Origin: a virus
Taxonomy: Duplodnaviria > Caudoviricetes
DNA: 64,000 bases
Virus record (IMG/VR): IMGVR_UViG_3300009692_000017
Coordinates: 1 to 64,000 of that record
Direction: 5' to 3' (one strand)
Of the stretch, positions 1 through 63,780 are shown piece by piece. Within the stretch, counting starts at the first letter, position 1. Every line of letters begins with the position of its first letter. Made by a program: the position numbers and the translations under genes. Under the pieces are notes generated by a model. That model was given only the letters and a program-made list of their open reading frames with translations, searched no databases and was not told the DNA's origin.

Positions 1-201
1 CGTTAAATGTTCAATTCCTTCTAAACTAGTTAATGATTTATCAGAACAACTCAAATGTGTTATTTGATCTAATGGTTTATTTTGCTTTTTGGCCAACGTT
101 ATTATCGGTGTATCATTATCGTCGTTCCAATCTTCCTCGCCATATGGATCAATGTCTTGTCTACTTAATTGTTCAAATATTTTAAAATTCATTAAATTCA
201 T
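1..201 (-). CDS. Leucine-rich-repeat protein, 5' part (runs off the window); carries the DPYGEEDW tag
   Basis: Manual translation: MNLMNFKIFEQLSRQDIDPYGEEDWNDDNDTPIITLAKKQNKPLDQITHLSCSDKSLTSLEGIEHLT. Near-identical to 20941-21123. Confidence 0.8.
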   Translation of the reverse strand, partial: MNLMNFKIFEQLSRQDIDPYGEEDWNDDNDTPIITLAKKQNKPLDQITHLSCSDKSLTSLEGIEHLT

Positions 202-218
202 TTTATATTTTTTTATTT

Positions 219-2051
219 TTATACTGGCGGAGCTTCTATAATAATGATATTTAAAATTCCATAACCGACAACATAACTATTTTTAGCATATCCCCTAACA
301 TAATAAATTCCGGAGGATAATCCAGTTTCTGTAATACTATAATTTAGTGGTAATTTATATGGTGGTGATTTATGATATACTACACAAGTATCTCCAGTGG
401 TCGGAGATCCGGTATTATTATAACACCATCCAACTTCAGTACACAGAGTTCCCCCATCGCTTACTAGTTGACACGAATATGTTATACTATCAGATGTGGT
501 ACTATATTTTAAAGTATCAACAACAGGCGGAATTGGAGCTAATGTCATAGTATGTCCTGTTGTTCCTGTTCCAGTATAACCATCTATATTAGTAGCAAAA
601 GCTCTATATGAATATTCTTGTAGTGGAGTTAAACCAGTAAGTGTACAATAATATGATCCAACTTTACCGTTTTCATTTGTATAAATAACAGTGTCAGTGA
701 ATGTGTCTGTAATTCCTTCGGCATATTCTATACCTCTATAATCTATTTCCGTATAACCACTCGGTGATCCCGACTTATAACCTGTTGAAATAACTCTACC
801 TAGAATTGACATAGAATAAGATGATATATTTTGACTTCCTATTGTTTCTACAACTGGTGGGGAGTCTGATTTATCTTTTGTAATAAAAGTATCAACAGTA
901 CCATATGATATTCCATTTTTATTTATAGCATATACTTTATAATAATAATTTGTAAGATAAATTAGATTAACTATACTAGTAGAAAATGTTCCGGGTTGAC
1001 CATTCGGTACAGTATCAGCTATTTGTTTTATATTTGGATTAATTGTACTTCCCCAATATATTCCCCATTCTGTTATATTATTTCCTCCATTATCGGTCAC
1101 TGTTCCTTTTACTATAGCGTAATCCATGCCAACATTTTCAGTCGGTGTAGATGATGTAAAAACTATCGGTGGTCTTCCGATTCCGCCATTGGCTAAATTC
1201 TCAGGATCATATATTTTCAAAACAAATTTATTATCATAGTCTTGCATTAAGATAGCTGTTGTATAATTTTTTATATTTATATCGCCACTTATAATTTCAG
1301 CATAAGAATTGCATATACTTCTACGTCTATTATCATCTCTGACTCTATAATAGTCACTTTCTTCATTTATATAAACATCATATAAAATATCAGAAATATC
1401 TTTTAATCCATATATTGTGCTTATACTATTAAACGTCATTTCACTTGTCGAATAAATCTTCAAAGTGACTCCTGTGATATCTGAAGTAGCATTCGTTGAT
1501 AATGTGATAGAATCATCTCCTATAGAATTTATAGTTGTGTCACTTGGAATTCCGTCTGCTGAGACTATCATTCCTAATACAATTTCTTCTGTTGAACTAA
1601 CATTTAAAATAACATTAGATCCATTTGTTAAATCGCCAGTTGGCGGTTTTGTCGGTTTATGTGTCTCAATGACTATATATTCATTCGGAACCAAATCCAC
1701 TATTAAAGTCTTACGTATAATACTGTAAAATATAAAATCCCCCTCAGACAACGGATCTGGGTAAGAACCCGATAATTTAAGATTAACAAATGTGTTTTTT
1801 CTGAAATATTGAGTTAAATCTGTAGTTAATTTTATTAATGTACCCCTAGAGTCTTCTTTTGTTGTTGGATATATATTTGGATTTGGTCTTTGATCATAAT
1901 AGGTTATATCCGTAGTATCTCCACTTGTTATAGTATTATCTAATAAAAAAGAATATCCGCTAAATATATCTTTATTAATTGATATTAGATGATCATATAG
2001 TTTATATTTTATATAATAATTAGAAGTAGTAAATTTGTTGTATTGCATCAA
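219..2051 (-). CDS. Putative virion structural protein with C-terminal fibronectin type III-like repeats
   Basis: Three repeats of the form P.V.T...G.V..GG......G..W/Y....L...T.Y.YRA(F/Y)A.N..G..YG; Thr/Ser/Gly-rich. Confidence 0.6.
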   Translation of the reverse strand: MMQYNKFTTSNYYIKYKLYDHLISINKDIFSGYSFLLDNTITSGDTTDITYYDQRPNPNIYPTTKEDSRGTLIKLTTDLTQYFRKNTFVNLKLSGSYPDPLSEGDFIFYSIIRKTLIVDLVPNEYIVIETHKPTKPPTGDLTNGSNVILNVSSTEEIVLGMIVSADGIPSDTTINSIGDDSITLSTNATSDITGVTLKIYSTSEMTFNSISTIYGLKDISDILYDVYINEESDYYRVRDDNRRRSICNSYAEIISGDINIKNYTTAILMQDYDNKFVLKIYDPENLANGGIGRPPIVFTSSTPTENVGMDYAIVKGTVTDNGGNNITEWGIYWGSTINPNIKQIADTVPNGQPGTFSTSIVNLIYLTNYYYKVYAINKNGISYGTVDTFITKDKSDSPPVVETIGSQNISSYSMSILGRVISTGYKSGSPSGYTEIDYRGIEYAEGITDTFTDTVIYTNENGKVGSYYCTLTGLTPLQEYSYRAFATNIDGYTGTGTTGHTMTLAPIPPVVDTLKYSTTSDSITYSCQLVSDGGTLCTEVGWCYNNTGSPTTGDTCVVYHKSPPYKLPLNYSITETGLSSGIYYVRGYAKNSYVVGYGILNIIIIEAPPV

Positions 2052-2066
2052 AATTTAATTTTTTTT

Positions 2067-3365: not shown

Positions 3366-3459
3366 TATATAATTTGGTTTTTAACTATATATAGATTTTT
3401 TAATCATCAAAATGTCATACTAAAAATTAAATATATAAAAAAAAATAAAAAATGGGTTA

Positions 3460-4572
3460 ATGATATTAAATATTAAAAGTTTAACCGATTTGTCTGGTTT
3501 TTATGTTGTTTTTAACAGAACAATAATTAATGAAAAAGATAAAATATATGGAATATCTCATTTAATCGAACATTTAATAGGTCATAATTTCGACGATGAT
3601 ATAATAGAGAATTTTCAGAACGACGGAATAACATGGAATGCTTATACATCACCAACAAATATAGTTTTTTATATGATTGGACTTGATAAATATTTAATAA
3701 AATATAAGGATTTATTTTTAGATAAATTGTTGTACATAGATATAAATGATGATGATTTTATTATTGAAAAAAAATCGTTACTCGAAGAATATACTAGTTT
3801 ATTTAACATACAAAACTCATCGCATGTTTTAAATTTATACAGAAAATTATTTGGTTCTTATAATACTATAGGTAAAAAAGAAGACATAATTGGTATAACT
3901 AAAAAAGATTGTTATGATTATAGATTGGAAAATTATAAATATCCTTCAAAAATAATAAATGTATCTAAAAATTCTATTTTCGATACTGATATGAAATTAA
4001 ATGATTTAGAAAATGATTATCACGTTGATTTTAAAAATGATACCGGAATTACATATGAAAAACATTTCACATTAAATAAATCTTCTATAATATATATGTC
4101 TCCTATAATTCGCGATAATTGGGATTCCGTATTTTTTATAAATTATATTTTATCAAATGGTATTGGTTCAGTTTTGTATAAAAATATAAGAAAGAAAAAT
4201 GGTTTGGCTTATTATATAAAATGTAATATAGATAGAATGAGCGACTTTTCAGGAATTAATGTAATATCAATTGAAACCGAAGACAATAATGTGCCTTATT
4301 TGATTGACAATTTAGATAAAACTTTAAAAAATAAATTATTCCTCACTAAAGAAAAATTCGAAAATGTTAAAAATTCAATAATAAATAAAATTGATACAAT
4401 ATCCATCAATAGATATAACAATATAGATTGTTATATAAAACCAGAAAAATGGTCAATTGAAAAACAAATACATAGAATAACACTTGATGATATTATAGAA
4501 ACATATGATAAATACTTTAATGTTGATTATTTTATTAAAAGCGTGGATAAAGAAGATTTTAGAAAAAAATGA
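3460..4572 (+). CDS. M16 (insulinase-family) zinc peptidase
   Basis: GISHLIEHL (HxxEH), WNAYTS, and downstream LYKNIRKKNGLAYYI typical of M16 C-terminal domains. Confidence 0.85.
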   Translation: MILNIKSLTDLSGFYVVFNRTIINEKDKIYGISHLIEHLIGHNFDDDIIENFQNDGITWNAYTSPTNIVFYMIGLDKYLIKYKDLFLDKLLYIDINDDDFIIEKKSLLEEYTSLFNIQNSSHVLNLYRKLFGSYNTIGKKEDIIGITKKDCYDYRLENYKYPSKIINVSKNSIFDTDMKLNDLENDYHVDFKNDTGITYEKHFTLNKSSIIYMSPIIRDNWDSVFFINYILSNGIGSVLYKNIRKKNGLAYYIKCNIDRMSDFSGINVISIETEDNNVPYLIDNLDKTLKNKLFLTKEKFENVKNSIINKIDTISINRYNNIDCYIKPEKWSIEKQIHRITLDDIIETYDKYFNVDYFIKSVDKEDFRKK

Positions 4573-4829: not shown

Positions 4830-4857
4830 AAAATTTTTTTATTCCAACACGAATGAT

Positions 4858-4891: not shown

Positions 4892-5293
4892 ATGAATTGT
4901 ATTTTTCTTGACGATATAAGAGAACCAAAAGATTCCTTTTTTTACACAAAAGACATAAGATATCTAAAATTAGATTGGATGATTGTTAGATCTTATGATG
5001 AGTTCGTAAAAACAATAAAAAATATAGGTATTGATAAAATTGATATCATCAGTTTTGATCATGACCTGGCTGACGAACATTATGGGCATGAAGAACAGCC
5101 TTGGAGTACAGACGGAATTATAGATTATTTTTCATTTGTTGAAAAAACTGGATATGATTGTGCTAAATGGTTATGTGATTATGCATTGGAAACAAATAAA
5201 AAATTACCAGAAATTTTAATACATTCTTTTAATCATATTGGGGCTGAAAACATTAAACAATATATAAAAAACTTTATAAAATATAATACATGA
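4892..5293 (+). CDS. Cyclic-phosphate-processing receiver-like domain protein
   Basis: IFLDDIREP, VRSYDEFV, ISFDHDL, TGYDCAKWL and IHSFNHIGAENI motifs. Confidence 0.75.
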   Translation: MNCIFLDDIREPKDSFFYTKDIRYLKLDWMIVRSYDEFVKTIKNIGIDKIDIISFDHDLADEHYGHEEQPWSTDGIIDYFSFVEKTGYDCAKWLCDYALETNKKLPEILIHSFNHIGAENIKQYIKNFIKYNT

Positions 5294-5505: not shown

Positions 5506-6012
5506 ATGATAACTGAAAGAATTAATAGACAAATTAAAGGAGTTCAAGAAGTAAGAATCACTGGCGAAGGAATTGAAAGTAGAGTCGTCAGTATACAAGA
5601 AGCTTTAAAAATTTCCGATGAAATGGGACTCGATTTAGTAGAAATATCACCGAACTCTAAACCACCAGTTTGTAAAATAATAAATTATGGAAAACTTTTG
5701 TACGAAAGAAAACAAAGAGAAAAAGAACAAAAACAAAATAATAAAAAAATTAAAATAAAAGAATTGAGATTTACTTATAATACTGGCGAACATGATTTTA
5801 ATTTTAAATTAAATCACGCTATTAATTTCTTGAAAGAAGGACATAAGGTTAAAGCTTTCGTTTTCTTCTCTGGTAGGGAACTAAATTACATAGATGCTGG
5901 TAAACTTCTTCTATTGAAATTTGTCGATTCATTGAATGATGTCGGTAAAGTCGAGGCTATGCCAAAACTTGACGGAAAAAGATTATGGGTTATGATAAAT
6001 CCGAAAAAATAA
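5506..6012 (+). CDS. infC: Translation initiation factor IF-3
   Basis: RINRQI...EVR, LDLVEISPNSKPPVCKIINYGK, KELRF, HDFNFKL, FLKEGHKVK, F.GRE. Confidence 0.95.
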   Translation: MITERINRQIKGVQEVRITGEGIESRVVSIQEALKISDEMGLDLVEISPNSKPPVCKIINYGKLLYERKQREKEQKQNNKKIKIKELRFTYNTGEHDFNFKLNHAINFLKEGHKVKAFVFFSGRELNYIDAGKLLLLKFVDSLNDVGKVEAMPKLDGKRLWVMINPKK

Positions 6013-6302: not shown

Positions 6303-6737
6303 ATGGAAAAAGAAGAAAAAAGGATAAATAGACTTAAAAATTGGTTTATAAAAATATTTGATGGTATTGATGTATTAACACAAGATCAACAACTAGCTTT
6401 TGATATATTTAAAATATGTTTATATGATGATAATAATATTAGATATTTAAATTCCAGTAACTCATATAAAAAATATATAGTTAATAAAAAATTCGTTTTA
6501 GATAAAGATGTTAGTACTTTTATTATTTTAGAAAGTGGTAAACTCACAATAATTAATCATACATATAAATACGATATTGAAATACCACAAAACACATCGC
6601 TTAAAATGAATAAAATGTTCGATCGGAAAGTAGAAGAGGATAGATCGATAATGGAAAAAGAAATACTTGGGAATATAACTTCGAGTCTTAATATAGTATT
6701 AACGAATTTTAAAAACAATCTAGAATCAAAATCGTGA
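6303..6737 (+). CDS. Hypothetical protein
   Basis: 144-aa ORF, tightly packed with its neighbours. Confidence 0.65.
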   Translation: MEKEEKRINRLKNWFIKIFDGIDVLTQDQQLAFDIFKICLYDDNNIRYLNSSNSYKKYIVNKKFVLDKDVSTFIILESGKLTIINHTYKYDIEIPQNTSLKMNKMFDRKVEEDRSIMEKEILGNITSSLNIVLTNFKNNLESKS

Positions 6738-7072
6738 AAAAATTCATTATAATTATTTATTTTTTATTTTTATCTTTTTTAAGTTATTCAGCACATCCAT
6801 TTGGTACCACAAAAGTATTTGATTGTAAGGATTTAAATAATGGTTGTGAAATGAAAATATATGCAAAAGCTGAATTGGGAACTATATATTTTTATATGGA
6901 AGATTATGTGGACGGATATGAATTATTTTTATACGATTCGCTAGGGAGAAAATTATTAGAACAAAAAATAGAAAACGAATCTAGTTTTAATAAAGAAAAT
7001 TTAACAAATGGCCTTTTCGTTATAAAAATAACTGATGGTAAAAAAGTATCCACGAAAAGAATTTTAATGTAA
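6734..7072 (+). CDS. Small secreted protein consisting mostly of a T9SS type-A C-terminal sorting domain
   Basis: Signal peptide MKKFIIIIYFLFLSFLSYSA; C-terminus LYDSLGRKLL...NLTNGLFVIKITDGKKVSTKRILM matches the Por/T9SS CTD pattern. Confidence 0.7.
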   Translation: MKKFIIIIYFLFLSFLSYSAHPFGTTKVFDCKDLNNGCEMKIYAKAELGTIYFYMEDYVDGYELFLYDSLGRKLLEQKIENESSFNKENLTNGLFVIKITDGKKVSTKRILM

Positions 7073-7080: not shown

Positions 7081-7281
7081 CTACTCCCATTCTACATCTT
7101 TTTTATAAGAATTCACGAGTTTTTTAACTAATTCCTCGGATTGTTCTCTGGTCATATTACCAACAGGAATAATGAATTTTAAAATACGTGTCGGTGTAAT
7201 TGGAATGGATTCAGGAATGGGATCATCATTCCAATCTTCTTCACCGTATGGATCAATTTTTAATTTTTCTTCGTTTGTCAT
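7081..7281 (-). CDS. Small protein with an N-terminal DPYGEEDW tag
   Basis: MTNEEKLKIDPYGEEDWNDD...; overlaps the stop of the upstream RNase H-like gene. Confidence 0.7.
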   Translation of the reverse strand: MTNEEKLKIDPYGEEDWNDDPIPESIPITPTRILKFIIPVGNMTREQSEELVKKLVNSYKKDVEWE

Positions 7282-9610: not shown

Positions 9611-12436
9611 TTAGATTAATTTGTCTATTTTGTTTAAAAAATCTTCTTTATTAAATGGTTTTGATAAAAAATCGTCACAACCCAATCTAAAAGCCTTATT
9701 TTTTTGATCCGGCATAGTTACAGCGGATTCAACTATAATTGGAATTCTCTCATCGTAATTTCTTATTTCTTTTAATATTTCGTAACCATCTATACCCGGT
9801 AAACCAATATCCAGCAATACTAAATCGATATCTTCTTTTTTTATTATATTCAAAACATCATCGTTACCTTCAGTGCATATAAATACTTGAACATTGGTTT
9901 CTAATAGATGGAATTTCATAATTTTCACACTATCCATATCGTCTTCGACAATTAATATTTTTTTCCCAATCAAATTCAATTTTTTGTATTTATTTTTATT
10001 TTTATTTTCTTGAATATAATTTAATGGTTTTATTGTATAAGGAATATTAAAATAAAACAAACTGCCTTTACCTATTTCTGATTTCAATTTAATTTCTTTA
10101 AATCCTAATAATTCTATTAATGATTTCGTTATGGACAATCCTAGACCAGCACCCCTGAATTTATTACCATTTTTATGTAATTGTTTAAATTTGTTAAAAA
10201 TTATTTCTTGATAATCTTTATCTATTCCGATACCAGTATCTTCAACATACATTGTCAAATAATCTTTATTTAAAATATTGTATCCGAATTTAACATAACC
10301 ATTATTCGTGAATTTAATTGCGTTACCTATTAAATTCATTAATATTTGTCTCAATCTATATTTATCTGAATAAATAATAATATTCTTATTAATATCAATA
10401 TCTAAAATAATATCTAATTTTTTATCTCTTATTAATTTAGTATAGCTCATTCTAATATCATCTAATAATTTATTTAATTCGAATTCGATTTTTTCAATTT
10501 TTAATGAATTGGCATCAATTTTGGATATATCAATTATGTCATCAATTAACGCCATTAAAAATTTACCATTTTCAATTATGGTATTAATATAATCATTTCT
10601 TTCCTTTTTTGTCAAATTGTTCGATTTTAATAAATCAGAAAATCCAATAATAGAATTCATTGGTGTCCTAAGATCATGACTCATATTTGCCAAGAATTCT
10701 AATTTCAATTTATCTGATTGTTCAGCTTTTTCTTTAGCTTTTAAAATAATATTTTCGTTTTGTTTACGCATTAAAGCAGTACCAATACTCAAACAAATCC
10801 CCTCAAAAAAATTGATCATATTTTCATTAAAAGAATTTATTTTTTTATTGTTTAATTGTAAAACTCCAAATATGTTTTTATTGATTTTAATCGGGATGAT
10901 GGCAACAGATCCATAACCTTCTAATATACATCTATTTCTAGCATTTATTCTCGAATCGTAGCCATTCATTTTTAAAAATCTTAAATCTAAAAAAGTATTA
11001 TTTGACCAAATACTTCCATTTTTTGTAAAAAATCTATTACAATTTTGATCAATTCTACCGTTTAATATCATACCACAAGTACAATCAAAAATTTGATTAT
11101 CATTTTCGTCTTTACATGTTTTATTTGATATTAAAGAATTCTCCTTGGATATAAAATCTTTTGAAAATCCATATTGAACGAAATATGGATAATCATCATT
11201 GCTTTTTAATCTGATTCCAATTGCATCTATTTCTGTTTGTTCTTGTATCATTTTTATAACATTATCAATCATATCTTTTAAATTTATATCATCATTGAGA
11301 ATGTTCAATATTTTATTAGATAATATTTGAAAATTTTCAGATCTTTTAATATCGGTTATATCGTTTATAACTGTAAATCTATATTTATTTTCCTGTATAT
11401 AAATATTTTCTGAAGATAATAATATTTTTTTAATATCTCCATTTTTAGATTTTAATTCTAAATAAGCTTTAAATATATTACCGTTTTTGTCTGATTTCGA
11501 AATTAATTCTTCAATAATTTCACTTGTAGCTATACCGATTTCTATAGGATTTTTACCTATCACTTCGCTTTTATTATATCCAAATAAATTTTGAAAAGAT
11601 TCATTTACTTCAATATATCTGTGATTTTCTAAATCACTTAAAGCGCATGGACATGGATTCATATAAAACAATTTGGAAAATTTTTCCTCGGATAAATTTA
11701 TCTTCGAAATGTCCTTAGATACACTAAATATAACCGATTTATCGTCCCAAATACCATATGATATTTTTGTTTCAACCGGAATTAAAAAACCTCTTTTAGT
11801 AATAATAGGAACAGGACAAAAATCTACATCACCTGATAACATATCATTAAAATTTTTTAAAGATTCAGATTTCCTATCCTCTGGATGAATCATAAGATGT
11901 GATTTCCCGATAATTTCTTCATAACTATATCCTAGTCTATCTATAGTTGTGGAGTTTGTGTGTATTATAATGCCATTCTGGTCTATGACAAAAAGAAATT
12001 CATCTACTGTGTTGAAAAAAGATTCGTAATTTTGACGCATTTTATTCATTAATGTTTCTGATTTTTTTCTTTCAGTTATATCTTGTATTTGTAAAATATA
12101 ACCATCCAATATATTATCGTTTAATATTGGGGTTATAACAATATCTAATATTTTTATGCCATTATATTTAGTATTATAAAATTTTTTCGCTTTTTCGAAA
12201 TCAAATTCGACTTCTATTTTAACAGATTCTTTATTTTTTATTTTGTTTTTAGCATCTTCTGATATATTCGGATCTTCGAATAATTTAAATTTAAAAATTT
12301 CTTTTCTATCAATTACTCCAAATATATTAATACACGCATCGTTGACAATTAATAATTCACCATTTGAATCATAAAACTCGATTCCCAATGGTGATTGCTC
12401 GAAAATATCATTATATTTTTCGAATAAAGTTTTCAT
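9611..12436 (-). CDS. Hybrid sensor histidine kinase (PAS x3, GAF, HisKA, HATPase, REC)
   Basis: PAS/PAC ends DITERK; H-box FLANMSHDLRTPMN; N-box NLIGNAIKFT; DTGIGI; GAGLGLSI; REC motifs ILIVEDD, LLDIGLP, KPF. Confidence 0.95.
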   Translation of the reverse strand: MKTLFEKYNDIFEQSPLGIEFYDSNGELLIVNDACINIFGVIDRKEIFKFKLFEDPNISEDAKNKIKNKESVKIEVEFDFEKAKKFYNTKYNGIKILDIVITPILNDNILDGYILQIQDITERKKSETLMNKMRQNYESFFNTVDEFLFVIDQNGIIIHTNSTTIDRLGYSYEEIIGKSHLMIHPEDRKSESLKNFNDMLSGDVDFCPVPIITKRGFLIPVETKISYGIWDDKSVIFSVSKDISKINLSEEKFSKLFYMNPCPCALSDLENHRYIEVNESFQNLFGYNKSEVIGKNPIEIGIATSEIIEELISKSDKNGNIFKAYLELKSKNGDIKKILLSSENIYIQENKYRFTVINDITDIKRSENFQILSNKILNILNDDINLKDMIDNVIKMIQEQTEIDAIGIRLKSNDDYPYFVQYGFSKDFISKENSLISNKTCKDENDNQIFDCTCGMILNGRIDQNCNRFFTKNGSIWSNNTFLDLRFLKMNGYDSRINARNRCILEGYGSVAIIPIKINKNIFGVLQLNNKKINSFNENMINFFEGICLSIGTALMRKQNENIILKAKEKAEQSDKLKLEFLANMSHDLRTPMNSIIGFSDLLKSNNLTKKERNDYINTIIENGKFLMALIDDIIDISKIDANSLKIEKIEFELNKLLDDIRMSYTKLIRDKKLDIILDIDINKNIIIYSDKYRLRQILMNLIGNAIKFTNNGYVKFGYNILNKDYLTMYVEDTGIGIDKDYQEIIFNKFKQLHKNGNKFRGAGLGLSITKSLIELLGFKEIKLKSEIGKGSLFYFNIPYTIKPLNYIQENKNKNKYKKLNLIGKKILIVEDDMDSVKIMKFHLLETNVQVFICTEGNDDVLNIIKKEDIDLVLLDIGLPGIDGYEILKEIRNYDERIPIIVESAVTMPDQKNKAFRLGCDDFLSKPFNKEDFLNKIDKLI

Positions 12437-13178: not shown

Positions 13179-13250
13179 TTTATATTTTTTAATATACAAA
13201 AAACAGCAGATTGATAGAAACCTTTGAACATATTTAATATATATCATATT

Positions 13251-14978
13251 ATGATATTAGATAATCAAATACGAATAAAAATAAATTCGACATCTTTAAA
13301 ACATTATAGAAATCGTGGTTATGATGTCAATAAAAACGATATTATAACAGTAAAAATTGAAGACTTATCTCCATTTTCCACATACAAAATAAATGTAAAA
13401 TGTGATGTCTGCGGAAATGAAAAAATATTACGATATTCGAGTTATTTAAAAAATGTAAAAAATACAGGAATATATTGTTGTTCTAATAAATGTGCATATT
13501 CAATAAAAAATAAAAAAACGTGTTTAGAAAGATACGGAATAGGTGATTATAATAACAAAGAAAAATGTAAAAAAACTTGTTTAGAAAAATATGGTGTAGA
13601 AAACGTATTTCAATGCGATGAAGTTAAAACAAAGATAAAGGAAACAAATTTAGAAAAATACGGCGACGTTAGTCATAATAGAAGTGAAATCGTTAAAATA
13701 AATAAAAAAGAAACCTTTTTAAAAAAATATGGTGTTAGTTGTTATTTAAATTCAGAAGTTCAAAAAGAAAAATCTAAAATTAAAAAATTAGAAAAATTTG
13801 GAAATTTAAATAATCATGGAAAATTAAAAAATACTTTTTTAGAAAAGTATAACACAGATCATCCATCTAAAGTAAAAGAATTTAAAGATAAGAGAATTAA
13901 AAATTATAAAAAAACAATAATAAATAAAATTTTATTAAAATATGACAATATAGGCATGATAAAAGCTGATTTTGATAATGACAAATTCACTTTTAATTGT
14001 GAAAAAGGACATCAGTTTGAAATTAATAGAAATTTATTAAAAAATAGAATAAAATATCATACATTATTATGTACTATTTGTAATCCGATTTCAAGTCATA
14101 TATCTGGACAAGAAATTTTATTCAATAACTATATTGAAGAAATATATAAAAAAGAAATATTATTGAACAATAAAAATATCATAAATCCAATGGAGTTAGA
14201 TATTTATTTACCAGAATTAAAATTAGCATTTGAATTTAACGGTGTGTACTGGCATAACGAATTACACAGAGAAAATAATTATCATTTTAATAAGACAGAA
14301 TTTGCTGAAAAACACGGGATTAAATTAATCCACATTTATGAGGATGATTGGATATATAAACAAAACATCATAAAATCAAGAATACTTAATTTACTGGGGA
14401 AATCTGAAAAAATATACGCTAGAAAATGTAATATAAAAGAGGTATTTGATAATAAATTAATTAAAGATTTCCTTGATAAAAATCATTTACAAGGCAACAT
14501 AAATTCCAAAATAAAAATAGGTTTATTTCATCAAGACGAATTAGTGTCTCTAATGACATTTGGTAATTTAAGAAGATCAATGGGACAAAAAACTATATAT
14601 GGATTTTATGAATTATTAAGATTTTGTAATAAATTGAACACTACTGTTATAGGTGGTTCATCTAAATTGTTCAAATATTTTCTTGACAAATATAATCCAT
14701 TAGAAGTCATTAGTTATGCAGATAGATCTTGGAGTCAAGGAGATTTATATGAGAAGCTGGGATTTAATAAAATCCATAAAACACCACCTAATTATTATTA
14801 TGTAGTAAATGGAATACGTAAGCATAGATTTCAATTTAGAAAAAATATACTAGTAAAAGAAGGATCAGATCCATGTAAAAGTGAACATGAAATAATGTTA
14901 GATAAAGGAATATTTAGAATATATGACTCAGGGCATTTAAAATATTCCTGGAAAAATAATTTAATATATAATAATTAA
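13251..14978 (+). CDS. Free-standing homing-endonuclease-like protein (Zn ribbon, KYG repeats, Vsr/DUF559-like nuclease, GNAT-like C-terminal domain), copy 1
   Basis: VKCDVCG, LEKYG repeats, ELDIYLPELKLAFEFNGVYWH, IHIYEDDW, ISYADRSWS. Start moved to ATG 13251, just after the TAATATATA motif. Confidence 0.75.
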   Translation: MILDNQIRIKINSTSLKHYRNRGYDVNKNDIITVKIEDLSPFSTYKINVKCDVCGNEKILRYSSYLKNVKNTGIYCCSNKCAYSIKNKKTCLERYGIGDYNNKEKCKKTCLEKYGVENVFQCDEVKTKIKETNLEKYGDVSHNRSEIVKINKKETFLKKYGVSCYLNSEVQKEKSKIKKLEKFGNLNNHGKLKNTFLEKYNTDHPSKVKEFKDKRIKNYKKTIINKILLKYDNIGMIKADFDNDKFTFNCEKGHQFEINRNLLKNRIKYHTLLCTICNPISSHISGQEILFNNYIEEIYKKEILLNNKNIINPMELDIYLPELKLAFEFNGVYWHNELHRENNYHFNKTEFAEKHGIKLIHIYEDDWIYKQNIIKSRILNLLGKSEKIYARKCNIKEVFDNKLIKDFLDKNHLQGNINSKIKIGLFHQDELVSLMTFGNLRRSMGQKTIYGFYELLRFCNKLNTTVIGGSSKLFKYFLDKYNPLEVISYADRSWSQGDLYEKLGFNKIHKTPPNYYYVVNGIRKHRFQFRKNILVKEGSDPCKSEHEIMLDKGIFRIYDSGHLKYSWKNNLIYNN

Positions 14979-19983: not shown

Positions 19984-21429
19984 ATGATAAAACTTTCCAA
20001 TATTTTAAATAAAAAATTATATGAAGATGCTGGCGAAACACAAGCACCAGTAGCACAAACCACAACCCATCCTGTTGCGCAGAATCCTGTTGCTGAACCA
20101 CCAAAATTGAAATGTATAGATGATCTAAAAGATAGATATGAAAAAATAATTAAAAAAATATCAGATAAGAAAGGCGGTAAACTTCCGTTATCTTCTGAAA
20201 CTGGAGTAAGATTACAAAAGGACGTTAATATTATAATTAATAATGATAAGACTAATGAAAAATATGAATTAAATTTCGTTGATTTTAAAGAAGATGATAC
20301 TCCTTTATATTCTATTGTCACTAATAATACAAACATGCAGAAACAAATTAAACCATATGTTATTTTAAATGACGAAATTTATCAAAAAGTTAATTTTATT
20401 TATGATGGTTTAAATAAATGGAGGGAAAAAATATCAATCAGTCAAAATCAAGTTGTTAAAACTCCGACGACAGTAAACGCCAATGTACAAAATATTTCAA
20501 AATATTCAGATTTCATAAAAATTTTTGAAATCGAACAACAGCAACAAAAAACAAAAATGACTATTGAAAATTTCGATAATAATTCTTTATCTCAATTCAC
20601 TAATTCAGCTGTATTTGGTAATTATGAAAATTTTAAAGAAATAGCTGCAGCATTAACTGGATTAAAATCCATTAATTCGGATTTATATAATAAACAATAT
20701 AAAGATTTCATTCAGTTAAAAGACAAAATAATACCATCTAGTAAGAAAAATGAATATATTACAAAATGGTATCTCTCAAAATGGAACGAAGATAAACACA
20801 AATACGAAATAATGGACGCTGGTGAAACAATTAAAAATGGTGATGCTATAACTATTAATAAAGAAGTAAAAGCAGATGAAACACCATTTACAGTTAAAGG
20901 ATTTAGAGTCACTAATGTTCAAATCAAAAAACAAGAACAAAAATTATTTGAACAATTAAGTAGACAAGACATTGATCCATATAGTGAAGAAGATTGGGAT
21001 GACGATAATGATACTCCGATAATACAGATAGCTAAAAAGCAAAATAAACCATTAGATCAAATAACACATTTGAGTTGTTCTGATAAATCATTAACTAATT
21101 TAGAAGGAATTGATCATTTAACTAATTTAAGAATATTATATTGTTATAATAATCAATTAACTAGTTTAGAAGGAATTGAACATTTAACTAATTTAAGAGA
21201 ATTATATTGTTATCATAATGAATTAACTAGTTTGGAAGGCATTGAACATTTAACTAATTTAAGAGAATTACATTGTGATAATAATAGATTAACTAGTTTA
21301 GAAGGAATCGAACATTTAACTAATTTAAGAGAATTATATTGTTATAATAATCAATTCACCAATGAATATAAAAATTATTTAAGAACAATAAAATTAAAAT
21401 TAAAAAATTTAAAGATTCTTGAATTTTAA
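19984..21429 (+). CDS. Chimeric protein: unknown N-terminal region fused to a DPYSEEDW tag plus LRR module
   Basis: Leader MIKLSNILNKKLYE|D; C-terminal KLFEQLSRQDIDPYSEEDW followed by 22-aa LRRs (LTSLEGIEHLTNLRELYCYNNQ). Confidence 0.8.
   Translation: MIKLSNILNKKLYEDAGETQAPVAQTTTHPVAQNPVAEPPKLKCIDDLKDRYEKIIKKISDKKGGKLPLSSETGVRLQKDVNIIINNDKTNEKYELNFVDFKEDDTPLYSIVTNNTNMQKQIKPYVILNDEIYQKVNFIYDGLNKWREKISISQNQVVKTPTTVNANVQNISKYSDFIKIFEIEQQQQKTKMTIENFDNNSLSQFTNSAVFGNYENFKEIAAALTGLKSINSDLYNKQYKDFIQLKDKIIPSSKKNEYITKWYLSKWNEDKHKYEIMDAGETIKNGDAITINKEVKADETPFTVKGFRVTNVQIKKQEQKLFEQLSRQDIDPYSEEDWDDDNDTPIIQIAKKQNKPLDQITHLSCSDKSLTNLEGIDHLTNLRILYCYNNQLTSLEGIEHLTNLRELYCYHNELTSLEGIEHLTNLRELHCDNNRLTSLEGIEHLTNLRELYCYNNQFTNEYKNYLRTIKLKLKNLKILEF
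21091..21354 (+). repeat. Four tandem 66-nt repeats encoding 22-aa LRRs
   Basis: Unit ttaactagtttagaaggaattgaacatttaactaatttaagagaattatattgttataataatcaa, with variation mainly at the xCxxNx positions. Confidence 0.9.
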
Positions 21430-28563: not shown

Positions 28564-28617
28564 TTACGTCCAATCTTCATCCTCAAAAGGATCAATAATA
28601 GTTTTTAGATTTTCCAT
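28564..28617 (-). CDS. 17-aa micropeptide carrying a variant tag (IIDPFEDEDW)
   Basis: MENLKTIIDPFEDEDWT*, directly downstream of a TAATATATA motif. Confidence 0.45.
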   Translation of the reverse strand: MENLKTIIDPFEDEDWT

Positions 28618-28659
28618 CCTATGTTTTTTATACATATATATTAAAAAAAAATCTCCATT

Positions 28660-55700: not shown

Positions 55701-56789
55701 TTGATTTTGAAATTTAAACTATTTGAAGGTAAATATGACAGAATTAGTGGAATTTCTGTAGACGAAATATGGAAAATAATCAAAATCACGAAAGTTTTAT
55801 ATGATTTAAAAGTACCTTGTTTAAGTTGTGATGAACTGGGTTACATAGAAAAAGAAATCGATTACAGTTTCTCTAGTCCAGTGGAATATGACTTAATATT
55901 AAAGATTAAAAGAGATAAAGTATTTAGAAAAGAAGGATTTTATATTGATGGTTCAAGTGATGATATAGAAGGAATTATTTTTATAGAATTGGTAATAGAT
56001 CCAGATAAAGAACCTAATTGTTATAATGAATTAAATTCATTTCTTCAAGAAACGATTAGACATGAAATAGAACATTTAACACATGGAGGATATAACAGAA
56101 TAGAAGATAGACCCGATCCAGATAAAACAATGAAAATTAGAATTGCGTTGAATAAAGCAAATGTAAAAGGAGATTTTGTTAATTCTTATAAATATTATTT
56201 ATTAGAAGATGAATTAGGACCTCTAGTTCATGGAATGTATAGAAAAGCCAAAACAGATAAAAAACCAATTACAACTATATTTAATCAATTTTTATCAATA
56301 ATGGAAGAAGAGGGGATAATTAATAAAGAAAAAAGAAAATTAGTTTATAAAGAATGGGTTAAATACGCTAAAAAGGTTTTACCGCATGCAAAATACGAAT
56401 CATATGAAGAGAAAGATTTGGATTATAGAGAAATAAAAGAAAATTCTAAATTTAAGCTTCCTATAGGAACACATGTTATTGTTAAAAATTGGTATGGAAT
56501 AGAAAGATTTAGAAATAAAATTGGAATAGTCATAGGTTATCATAAATCTTATGATGATTGTTTTCTAGTCAAGTTTGATGAAATATTTTATCCCAATAGT
56601 GTGTTGCGTCTTTATCAACACAGTGGTGGTAATAGTATGGAAGACCCAACAAAAAGATCTCGATATTTTAATAAAGCCGAAATAGAACCAATTGATAAAG
56701 ACATGGTGGAAGAAATAAAGAGAAAAATAGAAGAAAGAAGATTGAAAATGTTGGACGTAGATCCATATGGTGAAGAAAACTGGGAATGA
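55701..56789 (+). CDS. Putative zinc metalloprotease-like protein with an internal-protein-like leader and a C-terminal DPYGEENW tag
   Basis: MILKFKLFE|G; TIRHEIEHLTH (HExxH) with downstream EDE; ends LDVDPYGEENWE*. Confidence 0.65.
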   Translation: MILKFKLFEGKYDRISGISVDEIWKIIKITKVLYDLKVPCLSCDELGYIEKEIDYSFSSPVEYDLILKIKRDKVFRKEGFYIDGSSDDIEGIIFIELVIDPDKEPNCYNELNSFLQETIRHEIEHLTHGGYNRIEDRPDPDKTMKIRIALNKANVKGDFVNSYKYYLLEDELGPLVHGMYRKAKTDKKPITTIFNQFLSIMEEEGIINKEKRKLVYKEWVKYAKKVLPHAKYESYEEKDLDYREIKENSKFKLPIGTHVIVKNWYGIERFRNKIGIVIGYHKSYDDCFLVKFDEIFYPNSVLRLYQHSGGNSMEDPTKRSRYFNKAEIEPIDKDMVEEIKRKIEERRLKMLDVDPYGEENWE

Positions 56790-58818: not shown

Positions 58819-60384
58819 ATGATTTTAACAAAAACAGTAACGGTTAGACCTAATTCAAAAACTTTATCTTTTTATAAAAAATTAGGATATGAGTGTACGA
58901 TGTACACTAAATTGATTATTCCTGTTGAACATTTAACAAAAGGTTCACATCAAATAATAGATGTGAAATGTGATTATTGTGGAACTGAAAAAAAATTAGA
59001 TTATAATAGTTATTGGAGAAATACAAAACATTTAACTATTCCATATTCGTGTTCTGAAAAATGTGGAATGGAAAAAAGAAATAAAACTAATTTAAAAAAA
59101 TATGGTTTTGAAAATGTATTTGAAAATGAAGAAATAAAAAATAAAATCAAACTATCTTATATTAATAATTTAGGAGTTGAACATCCATCAAAAAGTATTG
59201 AGATACAAAATAATATAAAGAATACTAATTTAGAGAAATATGGATATACGTGTTCATTATTAAATGAAGATATAAAAGAAAAATATGAAAAAACAAATTT
59301 AGAAAAATATGGTGTAAAAAATCCTTTTCAAAATGAAAAATCTAAAAATACAAAAAAAAATAATATTATTTATAAATACAAAGATAAAGGTTTGATTGAT
59401 ATTCAAAATAAAAAATATATTTTAAAGTGTGATAATGGGCATTTAATATATTTGGATAAAAATATATTTCATAACAGAATAAAATTAAAAACAATTTTAT
59501 GTAACATATGTAATCCTATTGGCGATTATCATAGAAGTGGTTTAGAAACTGGATTAAGCGATTTTATTAAAATGAATTATGATGGTATAATAAAATTGAA
59601 TAAAAAATTTAGTTATCAAGAAATTGATATTTTTTTACCAGAAATAAAATTAGGTTTTGAATTTAATGGCGTCTATTGGCACAATGAATTGTATAAATCA
59701 AATGATTATCATTTGAATAAAACTGAATTTTTTGAAAGTAAAGGAATTAAGTTAATTCATATCTATGAAGATGATTGGTTATATAAACAAGATATAGTTA
59801 AATCTAGAATATTAAATTTTCTCTATAAATCAAATAAAATATTTGCAAGAAAATGCAAAATAAAAGAAATTAATAACAATAAATTAATTAAAGATTTTTT
59901 AGAAAAAAATCATATTCAAGGATTTGTTGGATCCATGTTTAAAATTGGACTTTTTTATAACAATGAACTAGTTTCTTTAATGACCTTTGGACAGTTAAGA
60001 AAATCAATGGGTCAAAAATCAACAGAAGGATCATACGAAATGTTGCGTTTTTGCAACAAATTAAACACTAACGTCGTTGGTGGAGCTAGTCGTTTATTTA
60101 AGTATTTTATTCGAAAATATAAACCAAAAGAAATTACTAGTTACGCTGATAGGAGTTGGTCATCAGGAGAACTATACGAAAAACTCGGTTTTAAATTAGT
60201 CCATAAAACAAAACCAAATTATTATTATGTAATAGACCGAACTAGAAAATATAGATATAATTTCAGAAAAGATAAACTTATAAAAGAAGGATACGATCCA
60301 TCTAAAACTGAACACGAAATAATGCTAGAAAAAAGAATTTTTAGAATATATGATAGTGGTAGTTTAAAATACTCTTTTACTTAA
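58819..60384 (+). CDS. Free-standing homing-endonuclease-like protein, copy 5 (convergent with the gp6-like gene)
   Basis: VKCDYCG, LEKYG repeats, EIDIFLPEIKLGFEFNGVYWH, FARKC, NHIQG, ITSYADRSWS. Confidence 0.75.
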   Translation: MILTKTVTVRPNSKTLSFYKKLGYECTMYTKLIIPVEHLTKGSHQIIDVKCDYCGTEKKLDYNSYWRNTKHLTIPYSCSEKCGMEKRNKTNLKKYGFENVFENEEIKNKIKLSYINNLGVEHPSKSIEIQNNIKNTNLEKYGYTCSLLNEDIKEKYEKTNLEKYGVKNPFQNEKSKNTKKNNIIYKYKDKGLIDIQNKKYILKCDNGHLIYLDKNIFHNRIKLKTILCNICNPIGDYHRSGLETGLSDFIKMNYDGIIKLNKKFSYQEIDIFLPEIKLGFEFNGVYWHNELYKSNDYHLNKTEFFESKGIKLIHIYEDDWLYKQDIVKSRILNFLYKSNKIFARKCKIKEINNNKLIKDFLEKNHIQGFVGSMFKIGLFYNNELVSLMTFGQLRKSMGQKSTEGSYEMLRFCNKLNTNVVGGASRLFKYFIRKYKPKEITSYADRSWSSGELYEKLGFKLVHKTKPNYYYVIDRTRKYRYNFRKDKLIKEGYDPSKTEHEIMLEKRIFRIYDSGSLKYSFT

Positions 60385-62212: not shown

Positions 62213-62262
62213 GATATTTTTTTATTTTTATATATTAAATTTCACACATTGTAATCAATGAT

Positions 62263-62931
62263 TCATTTTAAAATATTATCTTTCAATGTTTCACCAATTG
62301 TTTGAACCAATGTATCTAATCCGGATTTTTCTATATCTATATTTTTACCGTTTATATTAAAGGTTAAAATGAAGTCATTTTTTCCTTCTTTTTTTATGAA
62401 TAATTCTACTTCTTCTGATGTGTTCACATTTAATACAAAATGAAATGATAAACTTTTACACGGCATCACTTTCATTTTTGGTTCGTATTTAAATCCAGTT
62501 AAAGATATGTCCTTAACGTTTTCTTTATTAAACCAATCATTGACAACAAAAGATGGATGTTTTATGAACTCAGATAATATTTTTATATTATTACCAAATT
62601 CATTATTTTTAATGACATTTTCCCATTGATTTTTAAAATCGTTTATATTATCAATGATTTTCATTTTATATTGACAATTAATATCAAATAAATATTTGAA
62701 GAAATTTTGTCCCTCTTTATTAGGTACAATATATTCTTTTTCTTTATCTACTACAAATAATAATTTTGTATATAATATCACATTTGATTCAGTGAATAAT
62801 CTATTGAAAAATATTATAAGTCTGAGGACACCGTCCTTTTCTTCATAAACCGAATCTGAGAATTGAATTTCACTTCCTCTCATAACATCTTTTATTGCTG
62901 TTTCTATTTCTCTTATTGAAATTTTGGTCAT
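62263..62931 (-). CDS. Hypothetical protein
   Basis: 222-aa ORF. Confidence 0.65.
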   Translation of the reverse strand: MTKISIREIETAIKDVMRGSEIQFSDSVYEEKDGVLRLIIFFNRLFTESNVILYTKLLFVVDKEKEYIVPNKEGQNFFKYLFDINCQYKMKIIDNINDFKNQWENVIKNNEFGNNIKILSEFIKHPSFVVNDWFNKENVKDISLTGFKYEPKMKVMPCKSLSFHFVLNVNTSEEVELFIKKEGKNDFILTFNINGKNIDIEKSGLDTLVQTIGETLKDNILK

Positions 62932-62946
62932 TTTATTTATTTTTTT

Positions 62947-63780
62947 TTAATCTCCCCCATCTAGTTGATTTAGACGTTGCAAAGAATAATTGTAATTGTC
63001 AATATCTTTTTTCTTATTTTTTTTAGAATTTTTAGGTGAAAATAAAAATAGATGATGACTAGTCATAAAGGTGTCATAAATACCAGTATAATCTATTATT
63101 CTTCTTAACCTTATATTATAAATGTTTTCTAATTTATTAGATGTTGCGAATCTATGAAGGGATTTATAATTTCTTATTTCATCTCTTTCGTATCCGGGTT
63201 GTTCATCTTCCCATGTCTCTTCCCCATATGGATCTATATTCACGTAAGTATTTAAAATTTCTTTTGTTTTTTTATCCTTTATGGTACCTGAAAAATCTAT
63301 TAATGTTATATCTTGATAATCTAATATGTTTAAATCTGTTATAATCCCGTCATTTTTAATTTTATCTATAAATGATTTTATATTTCTTCTATCTCCGATA
63401 ATAGCATATATGTGTTGTCTAAAGTTATCATTTCTAAAATCTTCAGATAATTCTCTCATTTTTTTTCTGATTAATTTTCTTCTCGCGATTGGAAAAAATA
63501 TTGTAATAAGTAAATTCATCACACTAAAAGAATTTATTATATAACCGGCTGATGACAAATATTTTTTCCAATCGGGTCCTAAAATTTGAATTAATAATAT
63601 TGAAAAAGCAATAAACATCATTGCGAAAGAACCGTTACACGCCAAAAGATACATTTTTCTTAAAAATTGTTCTTTTTTTTGAAAACTCAAATTTTTCAAA
63701 TATAATTTTATTTTATCTCCAACATCAGAAATTATTCCTTCGTTTAAGAAATCATCATATTTTAATAAATGTTCATCCAT
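62947..63780 (-). CDS. Membrane protein with an internal-protein-like leader and an internal DPYGEETW tag
   Basis: MDEHLLKYDDFLNE|G; two hydrophobic segments; VNIDPYGEETWEDE. Confidence 0.7.
   Translation of the reverse strand: MDEHLLKYDDFLNEGIISDVGDKIKLYLKNLSFQKKEQFLRKMYLLACNGSFAMMFIAFSILLIQILGPDWKKYLSSAGYIINSFSVMNLLITIFFPIARRKLIRKKMRELSEDFRNDNFRQHIYAIIGDRRNIKSFIDKIKNDGIITDLNILDYQDITLIDFSGTIKDKKTKEILNTYVNIDPYGEETWEDEQPGYERDEIRNYKSLHRFATSNKLENIYNIRLRRIIDYTGIYDTFMTSHHLFLFSPKNSKKNKKKDIDNYNYSLQRLNQLDGGD

Follow-up and report, generated by a model that had tools for sequence, protein, structure and literature searches.

A nearly invariant eight-residue peptide with the core D-P-Y-G-E-E-x-W (DPYGEExW) occurs in six copies in the window, i.e. 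the whole 64,000-nucleotide stretch of DNA analysed, which makes up the first 64 kb of a contig 92,276 bp long. In a clade of giant bacteriophages, about one protein in ten carries the peptide at an end or in a linker, these proteins being otherwise unrelated. The peptide has the look of a signal for sorting or processing proteins that is so far undescribed. The motif is far in excess of chance, is portable among unrelated proteins, and is associated both with an N-terminal leader and with fragments of virion proteins. The reading that we prefer, with a probability of roughly 0.38, is that of a portable peptide for docking, connected with head assembly and recognised by a putative lineage-specific reader.

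Abundance and conservation of the peptide

A six-frame scan of the window recovered exactly six motif copies, in the same ORFs that an earlier note on this DNA had named. For the whole contig, the strict pattern DP[YF].[ED][ED].W gives 17 matches in 16 ORFs against an analytic expectation of 0.0012, and neither 300 residue shuffles nor 100 second-order Markov DNA shuffles produced a single match. Chance occurrence or a low-complexity artefact is therefore ruled out, and the comparison with a shuffled background, which the earlier note had proposed as one way of refuting its own claim, places the motif far above that background. In LR756501, a 735-kb relative, 106 matches were found against 0 for the reversed pattern. 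DPYGE is the top enriched 5-mer of this genome (89 genes, compared with 0.14 expected), and the tag is borne by 85 of 994 genes, or about 9%, according to our own gene calls. These calls were made with a crude ORF caller (first ATG, GTG or TTG, greedy non-overlap), so the N-terminal positions are approximate; gene, leader and membrane calls all come from simple custom scripts. The carriers occupy most of the 30 25-kb bins of LR756501, often arranged as tandem arrays, with no clustering at the head module at 72-78 kb. The tag is also present on genes of at least 29 related metagenomic contigs. It is absent from LR745206, AP019524, LR756504, LR756502 and LR756500, the five huge or jumbo phage genomes scanned. 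Cellular genomes (185,579 species representatives, 596 Gb) gave 72 single matches, with never more than one chance-level copy per locus, and so there is no sign of host proteins sharing the motif.

The fuller consensus is [KR][KR][VI][FIY][ST]x[LE]-D-P-Y-G-E-E-x-W-[DEN][DE]. In 122 copies, collected with a search pattern that permitted alternatives at the Y, G and first-E positions, Y is found in 121, G in 116 and the first E in 121. The LR756501 copies match all seven fixed positions in 98 cases, six in 10 cases and five in 2 cases. Every synonymous codon is used among the copies and the third-codon positions vary; variation is limited to synonymous sites and the x position. The earlier proposal that the copies use different codons and are under selection as a peptide agrees with these data: selection acts on the peptide. 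The motif codons of LR756501 are moderately biased to CCT, TAC and GGT (TAC 74% versus 35% and CCT 66% versus 34% genome-wide). Seven near-invariant residues are more typical of an enzyme recognition site, and in this respect they speak against docking.

The motif had been described as position-independent, and the 122 copies are indeed distributed over the extreme C-terminus (51), internal or inter-module positions (49) and positions behind an N-terminal leader (22). All 51 C-terminal copies sit 0-7 residues from the stop codon; in 38 of them the stop lies two residues past Trp with no membrane segment after it, and two natural C-terminal copies stop exactly at Trp. The leader and LDPYGEENW do not vary across a family of 7 orthologs that share 34-61% identity, and no other part is as well conserved. 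For a 213-aa carrier of this family, AlphaFold2 models the core with a pLDDT above 90, and residues 1-17 and 200-213, which are the leader and the tag, form the only low-confidence parts (below 50). For this one modelled family, the tag is conserved though it is not predicted as folded.

Carriers and their architecture

When the motif is masked, BLASTP at E<1e-5 sorts 99 carriers into 90 components, and none of these has more than 3 members. This rules out a single paralogous gene family, the other outcome that the earlier note had named as fatal to its claim. The Pfam domains across the carriers include LRR, deaminase, CCA/polyA polymerase-HD, GNAT, methyltransferase and S77. The view that the carriers are mostly unrelated therefore stands for the whole set, but it needs correction within the window, where two of the six are LRR paralogs. 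The first of these (1..201, minus strand) is the N-terminal 67 aa of an LRR protein truncated by the contig end, in which the leader MNLMNFKIFEQL is followed by the motif (127..150, minus strand). It is paralogous to contig ORF 81657-82214 and to the LRR part of the third carrier, a 481-aa fusion protein (19984..21429, plus strand). In the latter, a 320-aa N-terminal part is joined to an LRR domain (Pfam LRR_4, E 4.5e-21) by the remnant leader KLFEQLSRQ and then the motif, here DPYSEEDW with Ser for Gly, which lies at this internal junction (20974..20997, plus strand).

The second carrier (7081..7281, minus strand) is a 66-aa protein with DPYGEEDW at residue 10 (7231..7254, minus strand). It is a portal-fragment paralog: over residues 35-66 it shares 47% identity with the T4-like portal of LR756501 (residues 280-311). 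Its syntenic counterpart in LR756501 is a mosaic of portal fragments, 173 aa long, whose motif lies in a loop. The fourth copy, DPFEDEDW (28570..28593, minus strand), is the most degenerate among all motif copies and belongs to a putative micro-ORF of 23 aa, or 17 aa from the second Met (28564..28635, minus strand), which lies about 25 nt downstream of a TTTTTAATATATA box. This ORF may be a relic of a lost carrier. The idea that these two micropeptides act as competitors is not supported, since one is a portal-fragment paralog with a much longer ortholog and the other is degenerate.

The fifth carrier (55701..56789, plus strand) is an HExxH protein arranged as a leader (M/L)ILKFKLFEG, the HExxH domain (about residues 10-236), a beta-rich SH3-like module, a basic helix and the C-terminal tag DPYGEENW, which is placed one residue ahead of the stop codon (56760..56783, plus strand). 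Among its HExxH-family homologs, 11 of 12 end after the HExxH domain without a tag. The homolog P0016 has the motif and a different domain, while P0021 and P0025 carry the same SH3-like-plus-tag module behind a different N-domain. The sixth carrier (62947..63780, minus strand) has the leader MDEHLLKYDDFLNEG, hydrophobic membrane-like segments and an internal DPYGEETW at residue 183 of 277 (63211..63234, minus strand). It is paralogous to the adjoining ORF, a seventh carrier on the minus strand (contig 63783-64721), whose C-terminal part lies in the window (63783..64000) and whose motif DPYGEEDW (contig 64065-64088, minus strand) is just beyond it.

Membrane-like segments occur in 10 of the 85 LR756501 carriers (about 12%) and in 105 of 994 genes genome-wide, i.e. 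at the background level. In the membrane carriers the motif adjoins Lys/Arg-rich segments, which we read as the probable cytoplasmic side. Integral membrane proteins would be an odd capsid cargo, a point against docking at the head.

Leader, head proteins and known signals

The leader M[ILV][KT]x[FY]xx[FY]xE resembles the T4 CTS as quoted in a passage of PMC8442874. It is present in 83 of 994 LR756501 genes and on 34 of the 85 carriers (OR 11.7, p 6e-18), in line with the internal-protein-like leaders noticed earlier on the window carriers. Even carriers with only C-terminal copies have it in 10 of 36 cases, versus 49 of 909 non-carriers. The N-terminal motif copies follow a separate leader, which terminates in [LIF]-x-E. 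Membrane-like proteins account for 2 of the 83 genes with a leader, compared with 103 of the 911 without.

The head genes of LR756501 encode a T4-type portal, a gp23-type capsid protein and an S77 protease-scaffold fusion; the scaffold contains repeats of 'EYIAE', a sequence similar to the last part of the T4 CTS. The tag is found on 9 of 17 fragment paralogs of portal, protease-scaffold, capsid or sheath (OR 12.4, p 3.7e-6), and a free-standing S77 protease domain ends in DPYGEENWSE. A promoter-like box found before head genes is not enriched upstream of carriers (19/85 versus 180/860); that it is no commoner there than before other genes is a further observation against head docking.

As to the reader, the destination and any cleavage, we infer the following. 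The tag would be an exposed, unstructured, portable docking peptide that one lineage-specific reader would recognise. In this phage clade, over 100 accessory proteins that are unrelated and evolve fast would have acquired it at the C-terminus, at the N-terminus behind the leader, or in linkers between modules. The pathway served would most likely be head assembly, where the tag, jointly with the T4-CTS-like leader, would direct cargo as well as assembly factors to the core of the prohead or the inside of the capsid. The models for this are the T4 CTS, the propeptide at the C-terminus of prohead proteases in giant phages, and the encapsulin cargo-loading peptides. After docking, the tag may be clipped by a C39-like cysteine peptidase and trimmed by an M14 carboxypeptidase, both encoded in the motif-dense neighbourhood.

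The T4 CTS ends in a prohead-protease site, L/I-x-E, and is removed in the head; DPYGEExW contains G-E-E instead. According to passages of PMC8442874 and PMC7411985, the CTS is a short portable N-terminal peptide of IPI-III and Alt that sends unrelated proteins to the prohead core, and this leader alone is enough for encapsidation, so a second signal is not obviously needed. Our system shares with T4 a short portable peptide, head genes of the gp20/gp21/gp23 type and carriers enriched for a CTS-like leader. On the other hand, the T4 CTS is strictly N-terminal, about 10 aa long and bounded by the prohead-protease site, whereas DPYGEExW is C-terminal or internal in 100 of 122 copies, is acidic and aromatic, has an unrelated sequence and marks about 9% of the genes rather than a handful. 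With only 22 copies near the N-terminus, the tag is not itself a CTS of the T4 type.

The HK97 protease has a C-terminal targeting propeptide. Likewise, the C-terminal propeptide of SPN3US gp245 targets the prohead protease, as a passage of PMC7411985 states, and encapsulin cargo-loading peptides are described in a part of PMC11866011 as short terminal peptides that load cargo into an HK97-fold shell. Like these signals, the tag can be terminal and outside the folded domain, as at the end of the LR756501 S77 domain and in the one modelled family. Unlike them, with their few cargos encoded by genes beside the shell gene, it has an unrelated sequence and more than 100 carriers genome-wide; as the carriers are spread and not at the head module, encapsulin-type cargo adjacent to a shell gene does not describe them. 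The tag also recalls sortase LPXTG, PEP-CTERM and T9SS CTD signals, in which a single machine reads one terminal signal on many unrelated proteins, but those precede a transmembrane helix or are 70-100-aa secretion domains. The stop codon shortly past Trp and the lack of a hydrophobic helix rule out a sortase/exosortase-type signal.

The sister phage LR745206 uses a different leader, MK[YH]LKx[YF]xxFE, and a different C-terminal tag, [ILV]RDxKIxx[IL][LI], with 33 copies, 25 of which are within 12 aa of the stop. Two of these tag carriers are capsid-protein fragments. The phage's own leader is found on 0 of the 33 carriers, which means that the two signals do not necessarily act in one pathway.

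Alternative readings and implications

It is possible, though we hold it to be less probable than docking, that the motif is a recognition or cleavage site of the C39-like peptidase, with the M14 enzyme trimming the acidic residues past Trp and polyprotein-like precursors being cut at each motif. Gene fusion or fission at the motif would then be neutral. In favour of this reading, the motif marks module boundaries, the same modules occurring either fused or as separate genes that end right past it. In multi-copy proteins the motif follows each small beta-rich module; for example, a 1233-aa LR756501 protein has four copies. The near invariance of seven residues and the two copies that finish exactly at Trp also agree with processing. 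The C39-like cysteine peptidase (contig 80695-81261, minus strand; Pfam Peptidase_C39_2, E 4e-13, with a match to Peptidase_C70 at only E 0.008) bears its own leader, and its Cys31 and His122 do not vary among 13 sequences. The M14/AstE-AspA-like carboxypeptidase (contig 77703-78557, minus strand) shares 79% identity with the corresponding protein of LR756501. The two genes are 3-5 kb apart, and their synteny around proteins with several motifs is conserved across four genomes that bear the motif; close homologs are absent from the four motif-free huge phage genomes tested, where the sole match is a 30-bit C39 hit in LR756504; this linkage consists of neighbourhood and presence or absence over only seven genomes. 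However, cutting at the 51 copies nearest the stop would free almost nothing, yet these are equally invariant, and the C39 homologs (at most 41% identity) in 33 other viral loci are accompanied by neither DPYGEExW nor any other recurrent peptide.

Double-glycine leader systems likewise combine a conserved short peptide with a C39-like peptidase encoded nearby, and the peptidase here has the catalytic Cys and His. But Gly-Gly, as in classical C39 substrates, is missing from the motif; the single Gly between Tyr and Glu (116/122) and the location of most copies away from the N-terminus rule out a double-glycine leader, which would be N-terminal and end in Gly-Gly, Gly-Ala or Gly-Ser, and distant C39 homologs are found in phage loci that lack the motif. 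Papain-like effector proteases can have 7-residue sites with Pro, an aromatic residue, Gly and Trp, all of which DPYGEExW contains, and this too is consistent with a processing site. The AvrRpt2-type cleavage site is given as PxFGxW in a passage of PMC3661340; DPYGEExW departs from it, as its aromatic residue directly follows Pro and three residues separate Gly from Trp.

We consider it unlikely that the motif is an adaptor handle tethering variable binding modules and enzymes to one non-capsid cytoplasmic hub of phage or host, with a protease/unfoldase, chaperone, ribosome or membrane site as candidate hubs. The modules would be LRR, SH3/Tudor-like barrels, zinc ribbons and mimics of virion-protein surfaces, in an architecture like that of bacterial protease adaptors with their C-terminal tails, or of substrate-receptor families with their boxes. 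The carriers are indeed mostly protein-binding modules and ORFans that evolve fast in syntenic slots; one of them is 34% identical to its ortholog versus 60-78% for neighbouring genes, and Foldseek finds in the core of the modelled carrier a weak resemblance to tandem Tudor/SH3-like barrels (E 0.02-0.1, not significant). The Lys/Arg-rich segments beside the motif, the background share of membrane-like carriers and the leaderless tag carriers of LR745206 point in the same direction. The single chance-level matches in cellular genomes argue against such a handle, which also leaves the enrichment on head-protein and sheath fragments and the leader association unexplained.

Quite unlikely, in our judgement, is a zip-code system peculiar to the largest known phages, in which lineage-specific terminal tags, DPYGEExW here and [ILV]RDxKIxx[IL][LI] in the sister clade, would route about a tenth of the proteome through a dedicated machine. 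In the present clade this machine would consist of a leader-bearing C39-like cysteine (trans)peptidase and an M14 trimmer, which would cut or covalently attach more than 100 modules in or at the assembling head. One enzyme would handle many proteins, as sortase does for surface proteins, and among those routed would be enzymes, membrane anchors, modular effectors and proteins that mimic the surfaces of portal, capsid and sheath. It is very improbable that the motif is a 24-nt recombination junction with no dedicated reader, spread by illegitimate or short-homology recombination and tolerated as an acidic linker or solubility tail: its position exactly at shuffled module junctions, the tandem arrays and a codon bias that fits copy-and-paste spread favour this, but variation spares the fixed residues, degenerate copies are almost absent, the motif is invariant in orthologs only 34% identical overall, where a neutral linker would decay, and the sister clade evolved a different terminal tag at the same position.

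To our knowledge, portable head-loading signals, the class to which a docking peptide for head assembly would belong, are known from T4 and a few other phages, and for a handful of proteins only. In LR756501, the largest phage genome on record, one near-invariant peptide tags about 9% of the genes, and in the sister clade it is replaced by a different one. The tagged fragment paralogs of portal, capsid, protease and sheath are a puzzle in their own right. If the reader were found, more than 100 present ORFans would gain a shared fate, be it packaging, ejection into the host, processing or tethering; the tag and its reader would form a compact pair that is easily tested in vitro, and they would explain how huge phages shuffle and deploy their accessory modules.

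Abundance of the motif and its phage clade

The earlier note had placed six copies of an acidic tag, here written as D-P-Y-G-E-E-x-W, in the window, and each was found at its position; the whole source contig (92,276 bp), of which the window makes up the first 64 kb, holds 17 copies in 16 open reading frames (ORFs). The further expectation that the motif would exceed background was borne out for the contig, with 17 copies against 0.0012 expected and none in 300 residue shuffles or 100 second-order Markov DNA shuffles. The 735-kb relative LR756501 was fetched whole and its ORFs were called by a simple script. A back-translated DNA pattern gave 106 copies in this genome and the reversed pattern none; the ORF set contains 105 copies in 90 ORFs, and of the 994 genes in the non-overlapping set 85 have the motif, with 100 copies in all. 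No 5-mer of the proteome is more enriched than DPYGE (89 genes compared with 0.14 expected). The same DNA pattern gave no copy in LR745206, PTm1, LR756504, LR756502 or LR756500. Among the IMG/VR viral contigs at least 145 stretches match it, and the 80 matches listed fall on 29 contigs with 12 dataset numbers. The listed loci gave 233 six-frame motif matches, overlapping loci not being de-duplicated, and in 66 of them a stop lies within four residues past the Trp. A scan of prokaryotes, with a single genome per species for 185,579 species, gave just 72 matches, each isolated and none sharing a locus with another, and hence no sign of a host protein family with the motif. The distribution over phages together with the near-absence from prokaryote genomes marks the motif as a trait of one huge-phage clade. 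A full-text literature search for 'DPYGEE' found no phage paper, as judged by title and abstract.

The contig has a G+C content of 26% and is largely syntenic with LR756501. The T4-type large terminase encoded in the window shares 74% identity with that of LR756501 and LR756503, which are records from uncultured phages with a length of 735,411 bp; identity falls to 39-42% for three records of 634-642 kb and to about 32% for Tenacibaculum phage PTm1. The window also encodes a tail sheath homolog of 1288 aa, 65% identical to the 1285-aa one of LR756501; for the C-terminal part of this homolog there is a small paralog with a Pfam Phage_sheath_1C match. Other window products are a weak match to a T4 baseplate protein, collagen-like proteins, large glycosyltransferases, a hybrid histidine kinase (PAS-GAF-HisKA-HATPase-REC; 9611-12436, minus strand), a cREC receiver (4892-5293, plus), IF3 (5506-6012, plus), a class II (D/K/N-type) aminoacyl-tRNA synthetase (43164-44549, minus) and an M16 peptidase (3460-4572, plus). 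The M16 peptidase was dropped as a lineage-specific reader of the motif, since LR745206, which lacks the motif, also has it, at 42% identity. Ribosomal protein S21 is encoded at contig 83556-83756. Interspersed among the terminase, baseplate and sheath genes are five 450-580-aa paralogs with Pfam DUF7487 (13224-14978, 22894-24348, 29997-31355, 34128-35666 and 58819-60384, all plus strand), whose sole relatives in LR756501 and LR745206 are far shorter (255 and 125 aa). A 112-aa ORF (window 6734-7072, plus) has a sub-threshold match to a T9SS C-terminal sorting domain (Por_Secre_tail, 24.6 bits; cut-off 27), which hints weakly at a host from the Bacteroidota.

A TTTTTAATATATA box, which may be a phage promoter, precedes the start codons of the portal, protease-scaffold and TerL genes by 20-35 nt. 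Non-structural genes have it as well, and it is not enriched before the genes carrying the motif. One such box (window 28636-28660, minus) follows a terminator-like hairpin and precedes a micro-ORF with a degenerate motif copy (28564-28635, minus). In LR756501, ATATATA lies 15-110 nt upstream of 208 of the 994 genes.

Placement, carriers and predicted fold

The copies of the contig and LR756501 were pooled (122 copies; search pattern with D, P and W fixed and alternatives allowed elsewhere). At the unfixed positions Y is present in 121 copies, as is the first E; 116 copies have G, and the second E is found in all 122; x is mostly D, N or E, and the two residues past W are mostly acidic or Asn. 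Over the seven fixed positions, 98 copies in LR756501 match all 7, 10 match 6 and 2 match 5. All synonymous codons occur, with a moderate preference for CCT, TAC and GGT. The motif is free in its placement: 51 copies lie within seven residues of the stop codon, 49 are internal and 22 are near the N-terminus. The stop falls two residues past W in 38 of the 51 C-terminal copies. The sequence ahead of the C-terminal copies follows a consensus too, though a weaker one, K-R-[VI]-[FIY]-[ST]-x-[LE].

The carriers had been described as mostly unrelated, and this holds: with the motif masked, 99 carriers separate into 90 BLASTP components. Their Pfam domains include LRR, cytidine deaminase with CCA/polyA polymerase and HD, GNAT, methyltransferase, nucleotidyltransferase and zinc ribbons, or there is none. 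Many carriers begin with the pattern M-[ILV]-[KT]-x-[FY]-x-x-[FY]-x-E, here called the leader. Their modular construction can be followed in the window HExxH protein (55701-56789, plus), where an SH3-like module and the motif come after the HExxH domain, while 11 of 12 homologs stop directly after that domain and have no tag. The homolog P0016 continues with IDPYNEEIW and then a different domain, and the SH3-like-plus-tag module of the window protein recurs, 93% identical, in P0021 and P0025, where another motif copy joins it to a different N-terminal domain. Similarly, ORF 19984-21429 is a fusion in which another module is followed by an entire leader-motif-LRR gene. Carriers in syntenic slots diverge much faster than their neighbours; for example, one is 34% identical to its ortholog between flanks of 60-78%. 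The leader-bearing HExxH domain itself (residues about 10-236) represents a family with no Pfam match, and Foldseek against the PDB gave nothing significant for it, the best rows including selecase and IrrE-type metallopeptidases at E > 0.2.

The motif can be conserved without being part of the predicted fold. In a seven-member ortholog family of contig ORF 87216-87857 (34-61% identity) both the leader and LDPYGEENW are invariant. The AlphaFold2 model of this ORF has a core with pLDDT above 90, while residues 1-17 (leader) and 200-213 (tag) are below 50. Since the fold, in this one family, does not explain the invariance, a linear motif read by another molecule is indicated. In the AlphaFold model of 55701-56789 the C-terminal extension is of low confidence, with no alignment depth over the tag. 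Foldseek of the two models against the PDB gave no match at E<=0.001.

The leader and tagged virion-protein fragments

The leader is close to the T4 capsid-targeting sequence in the form quoted in PMC8442874. As described in passages of PMC8442874 and PMC7411985, T4 internal proteins enter the prohead core by means of this sequence, which is later removed by the prohead protease. The leader pattern was found in 83 of the 994 LR756501 genes and in 34 of the 85 carriers (OR 11.7, p 6e-18), and in 0 of 615 internal control windows. The enrichment persists in carriers with solely C-terminal copies (10/36 compared with 49/909), and membrane-like proteins make up 2 of 83 proteins with the leader compared with 103 of 911 without it. 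The head genes of LR756501 comprise a portal of T4 type, a capsid protein of gp23 type and an S77 protease that is fused to a scaffold rich in repeats; in this scaffold 'EYIAE', similar to the end of the T4 sequence, recurs about a dozen times. From the likeness to the T4 sequence, the enrichment and these head genes we infer that the leader is a capsid-targeting sequence. Tenacibaculum phage PTm1 was dropped as a cultured model for the leader, with the pattern in only 3 of 300 ORFs.

The motif also marks pieces of virion proteins. LR756501 and the contig contain 17 small fragment paralogs of the portal, protease-scaffold, capsid protein and sheath, about 30-47% identical to the full-length genes, and 9 of the 17 carry the tag (OR 12.4, p 3.7e-6). 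Examples of the paralogs are found in LR756501 at 48028-48549, 11314-11850, 145891-146127, 552409-552918 and 553796-554236, and the 66-aa window ORF 7081-7281 belongs to the tagged ones. Among the tagged fragments are a free-standing S77 protease domain with the tag at its end, a permuted mosaic of portal segments in which a loop is replaced by the motif, three capsid-protein pieces and two sheath C-terminal pieces.

A different tag was found in the motif-free sister phage LR745206. This phage has its own leader, MK[YH]LKx[YF]xxFE, and a C-terminal tag, [ILV]RDxKIxx[IL][LI], that occurs 33 times, with 25 of these copies no more than 12 residues from the stop. Elsewhere this pattern has 2 matches in LR756501 and 1 in the contig, none C-terminal. 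The carriers of this tag include two fragments of the capsid protein and many proteins with small modules rich in beta structure; the sister phage leader is absent from all 33.

Docking, processing and other readings

We estimate a chance of roughly 85% that the motif serves as a linear signal of some kind that is read in trans. Our tentative preference is for a docking tag linked to the assembly of the head, on account of the association with the leader, of the tag on virion-protein fragments and on a protease domain, and of known capsid-targeting peptides at either terminus. Against this stand the membrane-like carriers (about 12%, equal to the genome background), the absence of a link between the tag and the leader of the sister phage, and the seven invariant residues, which are more like an enzyme site than a docking site.

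A cleavage site is a less likely reading, which accounts for the junction positions, the apparently neutral fusion and fission and two peptidases, whereas it leaves the 51 copies at the very protein ends unexplained. These peptidases are encoded in a motif-dense region beyond the window: a C39-like cysteine peptidase (contig 80695-81261, minus), with Cys31 and His122 invariant in 13 homologs and a leader-like N-terminus on those of the phage clade, and an M14/AstE-AspA-like carboxypeptidase (contig 77703-78557, minus), whose LR756501 counterpart is 79% identical and whose relatives among solved structures are uncharacterised metallopeptidases. Both genes lie 3-5 kb apart around multi-motif proteins, and the order glycosyltransferase, S21, ThyA, carriers, 63-aa ORF, C39, multi-motif protein, M14, zinc-ribbon protein, metallophosphoesterase is kept in four motif-bearing genomes. 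Among five complete huge phage genomes, a close C39 ortholog was seen in LR756501 only, and so was M14; LR756504 has one 30-bit C39 match. In the viral-contig searches single C39-like and M14 sequences found nothing and alignments were needed. C39 was rejected as a general predictor of the motif: of 35 viral C39 loci, 2 have the motif (14 and 8 copies), and these encode the closest homologs, at 45-46% identity. In the remaining 33, with more distant homologs, there is no motif copy and no other prominent recurrent 5-mer, so the link is suggestive only, as is a role of C39 and M14 as motif processors. When the C39-like peptidase was co-folded with a motif segment of 40 residues, the score was 0.00 with 'no answer', which speaks neither for nor against binding.

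It is possible that docking and cleavage are combined, in which case the carrier would dock first and be clipped afterwards. Recognition by a hub unrelated to the capsid is doubtful, and slightly more so than cleavage; a recombination junction that no reader recognises is very improbable.

The motif behaves like the T4 capsid-targeting sequence, the targeting propeptides of proteases, the cargo-loading peptides of encapsulins and C-terminal sorting signals, although it fully shares the defining features of none of them. We place it with the portable terminal targeting or processing peptides, among which it stands out by its scale, by its free position, by the different tag that replaces it in the sister lineage and by its presence on fragments of structural proteins.
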